A DNA stretch of 64,000 nt from Cyanobacteria bacterium P01_D01_bin.156 (GTDB lineage Bacteria > Cyanobacteriota > Cyanobacteriia > Phormidesmidales > Phormidesmidaceae): contig JBCCQQ010000004.1 of the NCBI GenBank assembly GCA_039024555.1, positions 32,001-96,000 of the forward strand. The letters are read 5' to 3'. Below, in pieces: positions 39,001 through 45,000 of the stretch; position 1 is the first letter of the stretch, and every line of letters starts with the position of its first letter. Made by a program: the position numbers.

Positions 39001-42000
39001 TGAAATACACCCTCAAACTATCAGGTTTCTTAATTGCTTTATGCGCATCCAGTATATCGAATTTTCCAGGAATTGATACTCACAATTGTGAACCTACAAT
39101 GTCACAATTCGTAGCTACCTAAGCCCCGGCGGCAATCTGATTACGTCCCTTATTTTTAGCCTGATACAAGGCCTTATCAGCTTGTTCAACCAGAGACTTA
39201 GATGTCGCCTCCCGAAGACTTTTGGGGGCAATGACACCGAAGCTTAAAGTGACATAATCACTGACATCAGAAGCTACATGAGGAATTTTCAACTTAGCGA
39301 CCTGCCGCTGAATATTACCTAGCACCTCAAAAGCAACAGGAAGTTCTGTATTTGGCAAAACGATGACAAACTCTTCTCCACCGTAGCGAGCAACAAAATC
39401 ACTATGGCGTACACCCTGCTGAAGCGTTTTAGCCACGGAGATTAAACACCTATCGCCTTCCTGATGTCCGTAAGTATCGTTATAGCGTTTGAAATAATCT
39501 ACATCACACAAAACCAGAGCAAGACTCGTCTGTTGCTGAATACAGCGCTGAAGATAGGTATCAAAGGAACGGCGGTTAGCAATGCGGGTTAAGCCATCCA
39601 GAGATGCCAACCCCTGTAGTTGATGGTTTTGACGTAGCAGCAATACGGTCGATGCCAGGGAGATCGACAGTAGTGGGGCTGCAATGGGTAACCATAAGCC
39701 AGCCACAAAAAAAGCATAGACAATAGCTATTAGCCCAGACCCAACGCATGGGATCACTAATAGTAAGGAAAACAAATTTTTGTTCTTATAGACCCCATTG
39801 TGGTCCAGCACTTTATTCACTAACAACGCAGCTAAGCTAGTGGATAAAAGCAACCACCCTGTTTTTATCCAAGGTGAGGCACCATGCAATGGCTGACGTT
39901 CACCCAAGGCACCACCAATCAATTGACTGGCAATATGAGCGTGGATAAATACTCCCGGTAGTCGTTCATCCCAACTCATAGGAGTGTAGAGCAAGTCGTT
40001 AAGGCTAACGGCTGTAGCACCAACTAGAATGATGCGATCGTAAATTTTGTCATAAGATATCTCACCATTGAGTACATCAGAAAATGAAACAGATTCAAAA
40101 AATGTGCGCCCTGCTGGGTAATCAATTAAAATTTGAGTACTATGAGCATCAGCCTTTGCATAGCCACCATCACTAGGGAAAAATCGTCGAAATACGGTGG
40201 CGCCCAGTTGTAAATGAGCTTCATCCAATACTTTTGGAGTTATTTTCTCTTTTTCTAAATAACGTAAAGCTAGCTTAGTACCTAAGCCATATTTACGCTG
40301 CTGATGTTCCTCAGTCTCACATAGTTGTTGTTCTTGGTTACATTGAATAGCCAGTAAGCCTCGGCGAATACGGCCATCCTTATCTGCCACCAGATCGGCT
40401 ATGGCTACCTGGTCATCTCGATCAAGACCAGAGACTGGGGGAACAGCTTCCCCGATAACTTTTTCTACCCCAATCACATTGGAAAAAGTATTAAAAGCAA
40501 TTAGGAGATCATCACGTCCATCACCAACAGGTAAATCACGATAAATATCTATGCCGATTAGCCTAGGGCTGTGCCGCTGTAGCTGCTCTAACAAGCTGGC
40601 CATCTTACTATCAGAAATAGGCCACTCCCCTATTTGTCTGAGATCTTCTTCACCGAGAGTAACAATTAAAAATCGGGAGTCGATCTGATCGGTAGATTTC
40701 CACCGGAGAAAACGATCAAAGGCAAACCATTCTAGGGATTGTAAAATACCTAAGGCACTAATAGAGATTACCAGTGCGGAAATTCCCCATGAAACAGCTA
40801 AAATCCCTCCTAGTTGACGAATTCGCCATCTCAATTGCAACATGCTTTGGTTCCGATGCCCGAGAGTCTCTCTTATGCTTCCCGTTTAGTTAATGAAGGT
40901 AATGCTTATTTGAGAATGGGATTATTAGCTACTTCAGTCAACTCAGTACCTTCTAAAACGTCTTGCCAGGCACTATTTACAGCCTGATCGGTAGGATTCT
41001 GAATGCGTAAATCTGCCAGTAGAGAAATCATGTCATACCAGAGATGGGCCTGACGATACTCCGTAGCTTGTTCGAGGCTGGATTGAGTATTATCAATGTT
41101 AGCTATTGACTGCATCTGAATCCAGCCCTGTAGTGATGGGCTATCGGGTCTCAGGCGTTCATTACACATGAGAATAAGCGACCACTGATAGAGTTCATTT
41201 TCAGCCAGTGCAGGTGCTTCCGCAGGAAGTTGAATACTTACGATCCCGGGAGTACGAGGAAGTTCAATGTAAGTTTCATAGTAGTAATCATTATCGGACT
41301 GAATACTAAACAAAGCTTGGCTAGGAATATCTACAGATGTAGCCACCAAAACCTCAGGATGAGATTTACTGGTCATCCCATACTGAGACGCAGGCATCAG
41401 AGCAGTTAGCTGATCAGCAGAACAACTCCCCCGAGAAGCCCCGCTAACAGTTCCTGCAGGGGCCTGATCATCATCATCAGGCCAAAATGACCAATCACTG
41501 CTGGGAAGAGCATTTACTGCTCCTGCATTTTTGATAACCTCTGCTGCTGCAGGCCCCTGTATGCATAGGCCGACTGCTGTTAATGCCAATACACAGAGGA
41601 TTTTGTAGCGTTGCACCATAAGTCCAGTCATGTTTTCCTTTGAAGAACGTGAGTGTCGCTGAACAACACTCGTGTTGTAGTTGTTTATACCAAGCTAACA
41701 AACTCAATCCAATTTTCTTTAGGTGTTCTCTCGGAAAAGCATGTGAGGATTATGTGTTGCTCTACCTATCTTCATCTATTGAGTTGAGTATTTTTACGGG
41801 CACAGCTTAAGCTAACCAATTACCAATGAGAACAAATGATGCCCAATAAAACGGATGACTATATTTTTTGTTATCAATCAACGAGATTTGAGCCTGACGT
41901 AAAGCTTCTGCCTTTGTAGTTGATGGGCTGACTTCACCTAAAGCTTTGTAAAAGGCATTAATCAGTTCCACAGTCGATTCATCATTAACTGACCACAGCG

Positions 42001-45000
42001 TAGCTAGCGTACTACGTGCTCCTGATTTAATAGCCATCCCCGCTAGGCCTAAGGTGGCCCGATCATCTCCCTCAGCGGTTTGACAAGCACTTAAAACCAT
42101 GAGTTCAATCGGATTTTGGGTCTGAATACGCCGGTTTTTTAGTAGTCTATCGAAATCCGTTAGGGAGATGGTTTGGTCCCAAGCTAGCAGAAACGTGTTG
42201 GCCAAGTTAGAGCTAAATTGGCCATGGGTAGCCAGATGCAGAATTGGATAGGGACTGGCTTGGATCTGATCCTCAAAAGCTTTTTTAGTAAAGTCTCTAT
42301 CCAAATAGATTTGGGACTGATTTAGTTTGGATGAGATCTTACTGATTTCTTCCTTAACTCCTGGCAAAGGGGAAAAGCCTTGACGTGATTCACTCAGACC
42401 CAAAATAAGTGCTTCCAAAGGTTTTGGTTTATCAAAGTGGGGACCCATTAAATCTAGCCCCGGCGTTAAAGCGATGCCATAGGTTTCTATCAGATACTGT
42501 TCCCCATCATGTAGAGCCGCCATAGGTATATTGCGCAGCTTTCCATCGAGTACAAAGACTAGAGTCTTAATATCTTGCTGTGTTAACTGATCTGCCGCTG
42601 GTCGAATTAACCAATCATAAAGTTGTTTAGAAAATTGTAAGCGACGACGATCGGGCAGAGCCGGATTAAATGCAACAAAAAATTGGTCCAGAGTTTTATC
42701 GAGCTCAGCCTGGGACAATCGAGTCTGATAGTGGCTCAGAGGTTGACCAGGTAGAGCAAGGATAACTTCTAGACGATCCGGCAGAATGATTGGATAGATA
42801 ACGGCAGCCTGGGGGTCAAGCTGATCAATCTGTTTGGACTGGCTATCAATGCAGGCAGAGCGAAAATAGTTTTCGAGTTCAACAAGCTGCAAATCTTCGA
42901 TCAAATTACGAGCTTGTTTCAAGGCATTTTGATCACCATTGCCAGGTTTGAGTAACAGACTCACTAGCTCACGATAGAGGGGTTCAACTTCATCGCGAAC
43001 ACTGAATTGAAGCTCAGAGTTCGTGGCTAATAGATCAGCCCTCACAGAGGATAAGGTATCAATCGCTTCTGTATAGGTCGAGATTGCACGCTGTTCCTTA
43101 TTTTGCTGGTGATAAACTTTCCCAAGCTGCCACTGCCAGCGGTAGCCAATATCTTTGGCATGGCTGGTCTTAGCCAACCGCATGGCCTTTTGAGTCACCT
43201 GGCGGGCGTTTTCCCATTGCTGTGTAGTAATGTACAACTGCCCCAACTCTCCTAGCGCTAAGGATTCAGCCCGAGCATCATTGAGCTGTTGGGCTTGGTG
43301 GGCACCATCAGCCAGCAACTTTGCCAAATGATGCATGGGAACAGCAGGTATGTCGCTTGGTTTTACATTATTGAACTTACGGACACTCTCAACAAAGTTC
43401 ACTCGCTGATAGATACTAGACCGACTAGGCTGCAACTGAGGCAGTTGCTGACTCAACGCATCCATCAAAGATTGAGCTGCAGACCAATCATTGAGTTCTA
43501 CTAATAAGCTCAACAAATTCAGCTGAGCCGTCATGTGGTCGGCGGTGTTATCCGCCATAGGCATTAGCTGCTCATAAATATCGAGCGCTTCCCCCAACTG
43601 ATTTTGGGTTCTCAAGGTATTGGCAAGCGCCAGTAGCGTTTTAACGGTTTCCCCAGGCTGAGCTAACGTTTGAGTAATCGTTAGACTCTGTTCTAGGAGT
43701 TCCTGAGATTGCTCTAAACTGCCAGTTACCTGCAGTACACTGCCCAGACTACGTAAAGCAGTTGCTTTAAGGACAGAATCAGGCTGACTCTCAACAGAGA
43801 CCACTAGCTCATCTAAAAGGGTTTTAGCCCGACGATAGAACCCCAATGTTTGCATCGCTTGGGCTTGATTTAAGCGACTGCCCAGTTCACCTACAGGGTC
43901 ATCAATTTGCTCATAGACAGAAGTTGCTTCTTGCCAAGTGGCTAGGGCAGCTTCCGGTTGCCCTAGAGCTAGCTGAATACTCCCGTAGGTATTCAGTACC
44001 TGGGCCGTTACTTGGAGCGGCGTTTCAACATCTTGAATTAGCTGCAAACTCTGTTGAATGGTTTGTTCAGCCTTTTGCCATTGCCCTAGTTCCTGATAAG
44101 ACAGGGCTAAATAGCTTAAACTCAGAGCTGTTTCAGTAGATTTATGCTGTTGTCCATAGAGCTGCGTAGCCTGCTGCCAGCGGTGAGTCGCTCGCTGGGA
44201 ATGGCCCACTTCATAGGCTTGATAAGCTTCACCCCAGGATTTATCGGATGATTGCTGAATAGCAAAGCTGGGTCCAGTCGTAATCAACAAACAAATCATC
44301 AGGGAACATATACCCCATTTGAAATGCTGCCGTTTAGTGAGTTTATGTTGTACTTGCCGTAGCCACCGTCGCACCATCATTACTAGATAAATCCACCAGG
44401 TTCAGTTAATAGAATGCCCATTCACTAGATGAGAGTCCCATAAACCTATTCCGTTGCTGATTTGGTGGATGACTCGATCGAGCAATGCTGCACAGCAGCT
44501 CCGGATAACTCCCATTCGACGAGCAACCACATCACATTTAGTAGGCCGTGGGATTAATAGATAAAAAAGGGGGCTGCCCAGGAGGCAGTCCCTTTTTTAT
44601 CTATTTGAAACCGTAAAATCCGACAACGCTGTAAATTAACTACGGCACGCATAGTAAGTCTACTAGACTGCAGCTGGTACCAATGTACTCAGCTTCGCCT
44701 CAGATAGAGGTTTCTGCATAGCAGGCTGATATCTCTCATACCAGTCATCACTGCCTGGCCTTGGCAACAGCTGCAGCTGCGATAAGGCACAGTTAATTTG
44801 ATAGATATAGTATTGCTGCTGCTCCAGAACAACAGAATCGCTATCTGCGTCAGCTAGTGCATCCTTAGGTAAAGTCAATAACCAATTATGGATGCGACGT
44901 ATATTTGTTCTAGCGTCTCCTAAACTATGGATAAATGGTGTAAACGTAGGTGCACAATCAGCTTGGGCATCCGTCAACCATTCTGCCGTTTCAAGACTAG

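Follow-up and report, generated by a model that had tools for sequence, protein, structure and literature searches.

The locus analyzed here raises the question of what a small DUF928 protein does beside a membrane receptor whose CHASE2 domain, according to the accessible part of one account (PMC10581220), has no known direct ligand. The window is the whole analyzed stretch of 64,000 nucleotides from contig JBCCQQ010000004.1 of Cyanobacteria bacterium P01_D01_bin.156. An earlier note had presented DUF928 as the constant partner and long-sought co-receptor of CHASE2; we find that the functional tie between the two is well supported, but that neither wording is. DUF928 is a definite candidate for the switch of CHASE2 and one open to experiment, and the three proteins of the locus make the question testable, with a soluble partner carrying a near-invariant Arg, a dyad-intact protease and an easily measured output.

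The DUF928 locus and its counterparts in the same genome

Three minus-strand ORFs run in one direction and encode a TPR-CHAT protease, DUF928 and a CHASE2-GGDEF receptor, with intergenic gaps of 175 nt (TPR-CHAT/DUF928) and 62 nt (DUF928/CHASE2-GGDEF, DUF928 lying upstream); ORFs and Pfam matches bear out the three-gene locus described earlier.

41807..44380, minus strand: secreted-type TPR-CHAT (caspase-like) protease, 857 aa (Pfam TPR and CHAT, E 8e-67), with an N-terminal hydrophobic segment (residues 23-41), a TPR array and CHAT at the C-terminus
41819..42634, minus strand: CHAT domain, residues 583-854, with the putative catalytic residues His719 and Cys766, and Asp800 of LWxVxD
40906..41631, minus strand: DUF928 protein, 241 aa (E 9e-44), comprising a signal-like segment, Arg motif, FN3/Ig sandwich and three TPR-like helices
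41542..41631, minus strand: DUF928 signal-peptide-like segment, residues 1-30 (cleavage site judged by eye)
41422..41487, minus strand: DUF928 Arg motif F-x-P-[PD]...P-x4-[GS]-G-[GA]-[ST]-R-G-x-C, residues 49-70, conserved, low confidence in the model
41113..41409, minus strand: DUF928 FN3/Ig-like beta sandwich, residues 75-173
40948..41076, minus strand: DUF928 three TPR-like helices, residues 186-228, with invariant Trp222
39119..40843, minus strand: CHASE2-GGDEF membrane receptor, 574 aa (CHASE2 E 4e-55, GGDEF E 5e-51)
39878..40741, minus strand: CHASE2 extracytoplasmic domain, residues 35-322, with a conserved D-x-D-G-x-x-R-R (model pLDDT 92)
39137..39607, minus strand: GGDEF domain, residues 413-569, with intact GGEEF (488) and an RxxD inhibitory site (479)

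The DUF928 match (PF06051, residues 63-239) scores 149.9 bits against a cut-off of 26 and the CHASE2 match (PF05226) 187.6 bits against 26.3, the latter lying between membrane segments (hydrophobic stretches at residues 13-31, about 327-345 (weak), 357-375 and 385-403) of a receptor with a cytoplasmic output domain, whose GGEEF conforms to the GG[DE]EF pattern of diguanylate cyclases. The His-Cys dyad of the CHAT domain (PF12770) is present, and the equivalents of His719, Cys766 and Asp800 are invariant in 52/52 DUF928-adjacent CHAT domains. Solved TPR-CHAT proteases generally act in the cytoplasm. They (PDB 8d9h, 7x8a, 7zoq) and HetF, which cleaves PatU3 according to the accessible part of PMC9457339, share with the window protease a CHAT His-Cys dyad behind a TPR array, but differ from it in its signal-like segment, a feature also found in 29 of 36 proteases tested.

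The genome holds 12 DUF928 genes, whose products share 20-58% pairwise identity. As had been claimed, all 12 start with a hydrophobic signal-like segment (110/128 DUF928 proteins overall versus 3/91 control proteins, by hydropathy only), from which we infer that DUF928 is exported. Its proximity to CHASE2 in 10 of the 12 genes was likewise reproduced, at nine loci with one gene reached through a tandem DUF928, as was the variety of outputs (GGDEF twice, GGDEF-EAL, histidine kinase, cyclase, CHAT three times, AAA_35). The companion genes described as usual (CHAT) or frequent (TPS) were found as well, with a secreted-type CHAT within two genes at six of the nine loci and TPS at four. The number of CHASE2 genes is 18 and not 21.

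Association of DUF928 with CHASE2 across genomes

Among 18 other genomes of 18 families, with a pair defined as matches within 3 kb, 60 of 116 DUF928 matches lie near CHASE2 versus 1.7 expected by chance (~35-fold enrichment), as do 57 of 143 CHASE2 matches near DUF928. At least one pair occurs in 15 of the 18 families, in four gene arrangements, which is consistent with the per-genome pairing of 0.77 reported previously; no adjacent pair was found within this distance in G023, G119 or G123. The partnership is thus not constant outside the genome of origin. Nor is DUF928 supported as the co-receptor of CHASE2 at large, since about half of its copies stand apart, 70 of 157 CHASE2 genes have no recognized partner gene within two genes and, of the 145 genomes with a CHASE2 match among 151 sampled from the phylum, 94 have none to DUF928. 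The supposed restriction to filamentous cyanobacteria fails as well, with DUF928 carried by Synechocystis sll1891 (per the accessible part of PMC5587647) and a DUF928 fusion occurring in metagenome contigs.

Where the two genes do pair, DUF928 is mostly encoded next to that end of the receptor gene which specifies CHASE2: its gene is upstream in 25/39 cases when CHASE2 is N-terminal, and downstream in 24/26 and upstream in none when CHASE2 is C-terminal (12 of 77 pairs are cut off or have no recognized output). Copy numbers of DUF928 and CHASE2 matches rise together, another new observation (Spearman's r = 0.92, and 0.85 after genome size; 61 same-class genomes, kin not independent). The distances of the 77 cognate pairs correlate at r = 0.45 versus 0.27 when shuffled within genomes (0/2000), although mirror trees can arise from physical linkage alone. 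We consider the functional tie well supported because of the enrichment, the four arrangements, the copy-number relation, the partner type, which follows the CHASE2 clade and not the output, and the MtxA fold match; DUF928 and CHASE2 very probably act in the same pathway.

Two CHASE2 clades with mutually exclusive neighbors

Within two genes of the 157 CHASE2 genes we find DUF928 in 67 cases, FecR in 19 and both in none. These labels change once on the CHASE2 tree (149 rows, FastTree) and once again in a reduced tree (46 rows, IQ-TREE, SH-aLRT 100; shuffled mean ~15), versus 16 changes for output type. What is new here is that DUF928 and FecR-type proteins are mutually exclusive neighbors marking two CHASE2 clades regardless of output domain, with FecR-type proteins occupying the slot of DUF928 in the other clade; the split may reflect one ancestral gene pair amplified through duplication. 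A secreted-type CHAT lies within two genes of CHASE2 at 33/67 DUF928 loci, 0/19 FecR loci and 1/70 partner-less loci. The window DUF928 itself has no Pfam match to the FecR domain (PF04773), and hhalign of DUF928 against the FecR profile gives 0.15%.

Secreted proteins paired with CHASE2 have already been published, in the form of MtxA and FecR proteins. In Burkholderia the BiofilmReg operon combines LysM-FecR with a CHASE2 kinase (PMC5192318), and in Sinorhizobium meliloti the FecR gene smc02177, by its number adjoining the CHASE2 cyclase gene cyaD1 (SMc02176), lies downstream as a target of Clr and is dispensable for perceiving the plant signal (PMC5498481). Both resemble DUF928 in that an extracytoplasmic protein is encoded beside a CHASE2 receptor; DUF928 differs in lacking a FecR domain, in belonging with another CHASE2 clade and in its CHAT neighbors. 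CHASE2 also has a known upstream partner: in the accessible parts of PMC7529298 and PMC13001267, S. meliloti CyaK, CyaD1 and CyaD2 are activated via a separate envelope protein, NsrA, which is an outer-membrane beta-barrel unlike DUF928, and those parts name neither DUF928 nor a protease.

DUF928 shares its fold with the C-terminal half of MtxA

The Ig/FN3 fold claimed for DUF928 is confirmed by its model and structural matches. Among 48,161 chains, the best match of the model (residues 74-238) is MtxA (4z29_B; Z 9.5, rmsd 3.7, 146 aligned, next row 7.0), at 8% identity. Sequence searches give no such link, as a 68-row DUF928 profile does not match 4Z29 at E <= 10 and nothing in the genome matches Pfam MtxA_IG-like (PF22433) at E <= 1; solved relatives of CHASE2 were not found by sequence either. 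Downstream of mtxA (MGR_0208, PDB 4Z29) comes a gene for a CHASE2 adenylate cyclase, and under standard conditions the mtxA deletion mutant shows no phenotype (PMC4439547). New here is the match of the DUF928 model to the Ig-TPR half of MtxA, which is likewise encoded ahead of a CHASE2 cyclase. The likeness extends to the signal peptide (for DUF928 from hydropathy only), the two-domain Ig/FN3 and TPR-like body, and a gene adjoining a CHASE2 receptor, a trait true for about half of the DUF928 family. Unlike MtxA, DUF928 has the Arg motif in place of a folded beta-rich N-terminal domain (MtxA residues ~25-140, no counterpart in the model), many paralogues with swapped outputs, and genes for an exported CHAT protease and TPS close by. 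Through this match DUF928 acquires a structural family, and DUF928, MtxA-like and FecR-type neighbors come together in one theme.

In hhalign comparisons a bridging family, A4, is homologous to DUF928 (95-96%, E 5e-8 and 8e-9), and its N-terminal module is FecR-like (88%, E 3e-6). CHASE2 lies within the 1.5-kb flanks of 1 of 28 A4 loci; most follow TPR proteins, among which a membrane segment is predicted in 10 of 13, and this weighs against DUF928 being a subunit of CHASE2 receptors.

DUF928 as a proposed accessory subunit, and the possible part of the protease

We propose, at a probability of about 0.45, that DUF928 is a periplasmic accessory subunit of one cyanobacterial CHASE2 receptor clade, a docking partner that is protease-switched where TPR-CHAT is present. 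DUF928 would be a shortened relative of the MtxA-type neighbor that keeps the Ig/FN3 and TPR-like body and the Arg-bearing linker and has no N-terminal FecR-like beta module. Once exported, it would dock on its cognate CHASE2 domain through a flexible segment ending G-G-x-R and so set the receptor state; we lean slightly towards such direct binding. An exported TPR-CHAT, where present, would carry the signal by cutting behind the Arg, upon which the receptor would flip, although cleavage of DUF928 at Arg67 by the CHAT protease is itself rather doubtful. The output would be c-di-GMP synthesis at the window locus and, elsewhere, a cyclase, kinase, phosphodiesterase, TIR, AAA, or cytoplasmic CHAT protease with an ECF-like sigma factor and DUF1822. 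In favor of this proposal we count the enrichment near CHASE2, the position of the DUF928 gene, the mutually exclusive neighbors and their two clades, the copy-number and distance correlations, the MtxA match, family A4 with its FecR-like module, the secreted-type CHAT genes at DUF928-linked CHASE2 loci, the CHASE2 cyclases upstream of the fusion and the conserved Arg67 in its low-confidence segment; in a published table, Arg or Lys is the residue before the cut for most clan CD families (PMC4357240). As to physiology, Dgc2, a CHASE2 diguanylate cyclase, controls motility and biofilm in Leptolyngbya (accessible part of PMC10581220).

The CHAT-CHASE2 loci C10, C52 and C12 of this genome match the EACC2-caspase layout with ECF sigma factor and DUF1822 (PMC8195603, whose accessible part names neither DUF928, MtxA nor FN3); the sigma match is weak (E 0.001) and the likeness is one of layout. 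DUF928 adjoins 24 of 32 such receptors. The window locus differs in its GGDEF output, with no sigma gene, DUF1822 or receptor-fused caspase found.

An unlikely alternative is that DUF928 serves the exported TPR-CHAT as adaptor or inhibitor, its Arg segment sitting in the active site like a gingipain prodomain, while CHASE2 senses the protease product with no DUF928 contact. The inhibitory loop of gingipain R, which inserts an Arg, provides a precedent (PMC4357240), a DUF928-TPR-CHAT fusion exists, and family A4 keeps TPR, CHAT or TPS neighbors as the receptor-like gene changes. Of 115 DUF928 ORFs from other genomes, 48 have CHAT within two genes, and 14 of the 48 lack CHASE2 there; these 14, like the 39/115 with neither neighbor, also speak against an accessory subunit. 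Yet 28/115 lie beside CHASE2 with no CHAT, the DUF928 gene position tracks the CHASE2-coding end, this genome has 43 CHAT matches versus 12 DUF928 genes, and in 36 triples the partial correlation of DUF928 is lower with CHAT than with CHASE2 (0.17 versus 0.38).

In the fusion loci, also new here, a CHASE2 cyclase is encoded upstream in 6/6 (of 14) that show at least ~7.5 kb of upstream DNA, directly adjacent in three. The fusion search, a weak one, found DUF928 joined only to the protease and none to CHASE2, and the six fusion-linked CHASE2 domains (metagenome contigs) fall outside the cyanobacterial DUF928-linked clade, scoring 106-125 bits with the FecR-clade profile versus 87-97 with the DUF928-clade profile; both observations count against the accessory-subunit reading.

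A near-invariant Arg motif repeated up to seven times

Also new is this Arg motif, which is almost invariant, lies in an N-terminal segment modelled with low confidence and occurs in up to seven tandem copies in relatives. In the family alignment Arg67 is conserved in 96% of sequences (120/125) and Cys70 in 90%; the segment has pLDDT ~60, and only ~45 residues, which have no secondary structure in the model, separate the signal from the Ig domain. Two motifs had been attributed to all 12 proteins of the genome: in their strict form they occur in fewer (G-[GA]-[ST]-R in 8/12, W-x2-LL in 7/12), but the Arg (11/12) and the Trp (12/12) hold in the alignment. Tandem units of ~17-23 residues, each closing with GGASR, number five in L001, four in L106 and seven in L110.

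Such units would suit a pro-ligand from which a protease frees an N-terminal peptide ending G-G-x-R, acting as a hormone-like CHASE2 ligand within or between cells, as would the conserved Arg and the signal of protein nature to which S. meliloti CHASE2 cyclases respond (accessible parts of PMC13001267 and PMC7529298). We regard this as distinctly improbable, given that at least two motifs occur in 5/128 proteins and at most one in 123/128 (strict pattern), that the residues preceding the Arg are highly variable while the folded body is conserved throughout the family, that 34/67 DUF928-CHASE2 loci lack a protease gene at this range of two genes, and that the repeats suit multivalent docking equally. 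Equally improbable is a purely downstream place for DUF928, as an envelope protein inherited and regulated together with these loci but taking no part in sensing, which SMc02177 appears to be: the absence of sensing or motility defects in smc02177 and mtxA mutants (which also weighs against an accessory subunit), the solitary state of about a third of DUF928 genes and the three genomes with no pair favor it, but the link persists through changed output chemistry, order and strand, which a shared regulon does not predict, and the mutual exclusion with FecR and the copy-number tracking oppose it.

A bolder version, which we also hold to be unlikely, makes CHASE2 the receptor for an Arg-terminated peptide freed or unmasked from a DUF928/MtxA-type precursor by the exported caspase-like TPR-CHAT protease. 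If true, bacteria would have a protease-activated receptor system, expanded to as many as ~20 cognate triads in one cyanobacterial genome and connected to c-di-GMP, cyclic NMP, kinases, TIR domains and a second caspase, this one cytoplasmic and accompanied by a sigma factor. One cluster of CHASE2 and DUF928 has previously been mentioned in passing.

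Cassette organization in the source genome

The locus at window 39119..44380 consists of three genes that run in the same direction, with intergenic gaps of 175 and 62 nt:

41807-44380, minus strand: TPR-CHAT protease, 857 aa (TPR repeats and CHAT)
40906-41631, minus strand: DUF928 protein, 241 aa (DUF928)
39119-40843, minus strand: CHASE2-GGDEF receptor, 574 aa (CHASE2 and GGDEF)

The protease carries His719 and Cys766, with a hydrophobic segment at residues 23-41; in the receptor, the GGEEF site is intact and an RxxD site is present. Among named relatives, Leptothoe proteins come closest to the DUF928 protein (66%), and a scan of genome contigs with the window protein as query gave no match. 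Between the TPR-CHAT gene and a 175 aa ORF (44663-45190) sits an inverted repeat at 44561-44600, read by eye, with A and T runs on either side; it looks like a terminator and may form the upstream bound of the cassette. Immediately downstream of the receptor gene lies a gene for a membrane-anchored 248 aa protein (38204-38950, minus strand) without a Pfam match, which we take to resemble lysozyme-like muramidases. Another gene in the window (52448-54943, minus strand) encodes a protein of 831 aa in which a repeat stretch rich in Gly, Val, Ala and Phe (GVAFGVA...) is combined with a STAND-like ATPase plus HTH at the C-terminus.

The source genome (6.6 Mb, 149 contigs, 99% complete; window at C4:32001-96000) holds 12 DUF928 genes, 43 CHAT matches and 18 CHASE2 genes, rather than the 21 CHASE2 genes counted in an earlier note. 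As that note had reported, 10 of the 12 DUF928 genes adjoin CHASE2, across 9 loci, and the output domains at these loci agree with its list; the two motifs that it described as common to all DUF928 proteins occur in strict form in only 8/12 (G-[GA]-[ST]-R) and 7/12 (W-x2-LL). The remaining nine CHASE2 genes comprise three with FecR-domain neighbors, two with divergent secreted neighbors (L019:13206 and L013:9628) and four with no recognized partner.

Linkage of DUF928 and CHASE2 across genomes

Among 151 genomes of the phylum, CHASE2 was matched in 145 and DUF928 in 51, all of which also carry CHASE2, which means little at a base rate of 145/151. We chose 18 DUF928-bearing genomes, one per family, with all matches listed; two of the 118 DUF928 rows, second pieces of one gene, were dropped. 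Sixty of the resulting 116 matches lie no more than 3 kb from a CHASE2 match (1.7 expected), and 57/143 CHASE2 matches have DUF928 within that distance, with no such pair in three of the genomes (G023, G119 and G123). Regions were taken around DUF928 matches (n = 100) and around CHASE2 matches without DUF928 (n = 78) and annotated with profiles made from the source genome's own domains. Counted per ORF, 62/115 DUF928 proteins adjoin CHASE2, a slightly inflated fraction since the set takes in a few divergent ORFs first met in CHASE2 loci; CHAT lies within two genes of 48 of these ORFs and TPS of 26, while 36 have none of the three nearby. Because of these proportions, the link is far above chance but is not constant, so that the earlier description of DUF928 as the constant partner of CHASE2 does not hold across genomes. 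Restriction of the pairing to filamentous cyanobacteria is also rejected. Overall, the earlier observation is confirmed in part, and its interpretation is supported in part.

DUF928 and CHASE2 match counts track each other in 61 genomes of the same class (Spearman 0.92; 0.85 after genome size; kin are not independent), three capped CHASE2 counts and the source genome's split DUF928 match having been replaced from separate match lists. Because of this tracking we infer that solitary DUF928 genes may pair in trans. In one family of small genomes (f24, ~2 Mb), CHASE2 is present in one or two copies in 57/57, and DUF928 is matched in 0/57.

In open-access literature, the term DUF928 was found only in PMC5587647, the available part of which mentions one cluster where CHASE2 and DUF928 occur with two WD40 genes; for sll1891 it cites a response to acid stress. 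As far as the accessible parts of the sources go, related arrangements comprise operons of LysM-FecR with a CHASE2 kinase (PMC5192318), activation of CHASE2 cyclases by the protein uL2 through NsrA (PMC13001267, PMC7529298), the FecR gene smc02177, required for infection control and dispensable for signal perception (PMC5498481), and EACC2-caspase, ECF sigma and DUF1822 systems, some with CHASE2 (PMC8195603), whose neighborhood tables may contain DUF928; the CHASE2 ligand is called unknown in PMC10581220. Among the matches listed, mainly open-access main text, none links DUF928 to MtxA or names it as a CHASE2 partner.

Proposed mechanism, arginine motif and protease

We favor, with a probability of about 0.45 for the whole, a reading in which DUF928 would be a periplasmic accessory subunit of its cognate CHASE2 receptor, would dock on it via the Arg segment and would be switched by the exported protease. 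That the two proteins act in a shared pathway is highly probable; their direct binding, as predicted, is slightly favored, and the predicted cleavage at Arg67 is doubtful.

In the flexible segment of DUF928, Pro58, Arg67 and Cys70 are conserved in 90%, 96% and 90% of the family, and the motif Arg is present in 120/125 sequences, paired or solitary. Secreted-type CHAT occurs near CHASE2 at 33/67 DUF928 loci, 0/19 FecR loci and 1/70 partner-less loci, and the His, Cys and LWxVxD Asp are invariant in 52 DUF928-adjacent CHAT domains. This Asp may select Arg; separase was absent among the CHAT profile matches. In the available part of PMC4357240, which does not cover CHAT specificity, P1 is given as Arg or Lys for six of the nine groups in clan CD, and gingipain is described as having an inhibitory loop that inserts an Arg.

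In a search for longer homologues that scored 8000 candidates, a single protein emerged; its 1550 aa combine a signal, DUF928 (Pfam 46.9 bits), a TPR region and CHAT in one fusion. Among 14 such fusion loci from metagenomes, a CHASE2 cyclase lies upstream in 6/6 of those with long upstream flanks, directly adjoining the fusion in three of the six. Given that DUF928 can be joined to the protease itself, it might act as adaptor or inhibitor of the protease, a minority possibility in our view; in 36 triples, the partial r of DUF928 pair distances is 0.38 with CHASE2 versus 0.17 with CHAT. At L258:12547-13389, a gene that converges on the fusion encodes a 280 aa protein whose N-terminal motif segment is nearly identical to the fusion's; it is possibly a free DUF928-like copy.

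The motif unit is repeated in 5/128 DUF928 proteins, up to seven times, with copies ending in GG[AS]SR or similar. A pro-ligand role, one of the two suggested in the earlier note, is improbable, and so is the reading of DUF928 as a downstream passenger. Tandem GGASR-ending motifs are found at L001:8915-9931 (5 copies), L106:5595-6587 (4) and L110:6074-7276 (7); the CHASE2 hybrid kinases encoded downstream of the three are close relatives of one another. Cytoplasmic CHAT is also fused to CHASE2 (L010, L007, L019 and ~30 related receptors), FAGHS and NSC both being present in 32/33; the genes ahead of these receptors are DUF1822 and a weakly sigma-like gene, a layout that agrees with the EACC2 systems in the accessible part of PMC8195603.

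Partner type and sensor clade

Within two genes of 157 CHASE2 genes, the partner is DUF928 in 67, FecR in 19, the L013 type in 1 and none recognized in 70, so that DUF928 as universal partner is rejected; no gene has both DUF928 and FecR (0/157). In the tree built from 149 CHASE2 domains (8 under 200 residues omitted), a single clade of 28 rows contains all 19 FecR-linked domains, and the 63 DUF928-linked ones all fall among the other 121 rows. In an IQ-TREE sample of the 19 FecR rows and 27/63 DUF928 rows, the partner label amounts to one change (SH-aLRT 100), compared with 16 changes for 9 output types. Partner type tracks sensor clade, not output.

In most pairs of known layout (49/65), DUF928 is encoded on the side of the receptor gene that codes for CHASE2, and where CHASE2 is C-terminal the DUF928 gene is upstream in 0/26 pairs. 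Pair distances of the two proteins correlate at r 0.45 versus 0.27 after within-genome shuffles. The clade, position and distance patterns are not independent proof of binding, because block-wise copying of one ancestral pair would produce the same. As an outside test, six fusion-linked CHASE2 domains were predicted to fall in the DUF928 clade; the prediction failed, the six forming a third branch that the FecR-clade profile scores higher. L101, L164, L180 and L205 form a supported CHASE2 group of 540-620 aa without an output domain recognized by the profiles used.

The CHASE2 domain model is confident (pLDDT 92) and has no clear structural match (best Z 5.1); Foldseek gave no match at E <= 0.001, and the fold is neither placed nor shown to be new. 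In paired alignments of 77 rows each, CHASE2(35-322) and DUF928(41-241), the top co-varying pair is CHASE2 Leu151, beside a D-x-D-G-x-x-R-R motif, and DUF928 Gly64, inside the Arg motif (Z 7.9; shuffled maximum 5.3 +/- 0.3, 0/30, the shuffles ignoring kinship). A tree-aware test with our own two-state coding was not significant (median p 0.4-0.5), and the putative coupling is a lead only.

Fold and relatives of DUF928

The DUF928 model (68 sequences, pLDDT 82) is of low confidence to residue 70; further on, residues 75-173 form a beta sandwich and residues 186-228 three helices. Its top match among 48,161 chains is the C-terminal domain of MtxA (4z29; Z 9.5, rmsd 3.7, 146 aligned, 8% identity), ahead of FN3 domains (Z <= 7.0); Foldseek puts 4z29 5th (E 1.6e-3). 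In the available part of PMC4439547, MtxA has an N-terminal region rich in beta structure behind its signal peptide, then Ig-like and TPR domains, and mtxA precedes a CHASE2 adenylate cyclase gene, its deletion having no phenotype. The C-terminal fold is common to both, whereas MtxA's N-terminal domain is absent from DUF928; with this domain missing and no sequence match, membership in MtxA is rejected, as is membership in FecR. When DUF928, CHASE2 and the single CHAT domain were compared by sequence with solved structures, nothing useful emerged. In the ESM Atlas, the best non-DUF928 named cluster (0.79) has MtxA families on ~15% of members, a lead only.

Single-sequence comparisons of L013:9628 and L019:13206 with the DUF928 profile are weak, and the two are tied to DUF928 solely via the former's own family and via L149, respectively. 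A search with L013:9628 gave a bridging family, mostly of 300-400 aa, aligned from 98 of the 150 matches listed plus the query, with long TPR-only and partial matches omitted; 8/99 members have a Pfam DUF928 match. The bridging-family profile aligns with DUF928 at 95-96% (E 5e-8 and 8e-9), and over the N-terminal 60 columns it aligns with the cyanobacterial FecR profile at 88% (E 3e-6). The family thus links DUF928, the MtxA-like architecture and FecR-type proteins. Most bridging-family genes come after TPR proteins (kinase, CHAT or unrecognized N-terminus), with membrane segments predicted in 10/13 of these, and before TPS or TPR-CHAT genes; only 1/28 loci have CHASE2 in 1.5 kb flanks. These neighborhoods count against a CHASE2-centered view.

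A parallel cassette in the source genome (G000:C75, C69 and C93; regions L242, L253 and L255) and in L228-L254 has the order TPR protein with predicted membrane segments, MtxA-like FecR-N/FN3/TPR protein, then TPS or TPR-CHAT; the N-terminal output of the TPR protein varies (CHAT, Ser/Thr kinase or unrecognized), and C75 carries five CHAT genes within 28 kb. At L013:5138-9619 (G000:C7), CHASE2 is fused to five TIR-like stretches in a protein of 1493 aa, whose gene is followed by an MtxA-like gene and then two TPS-CHAT fusions; TIR-CHASE2 occurs with DUF928 in L109 and L111.
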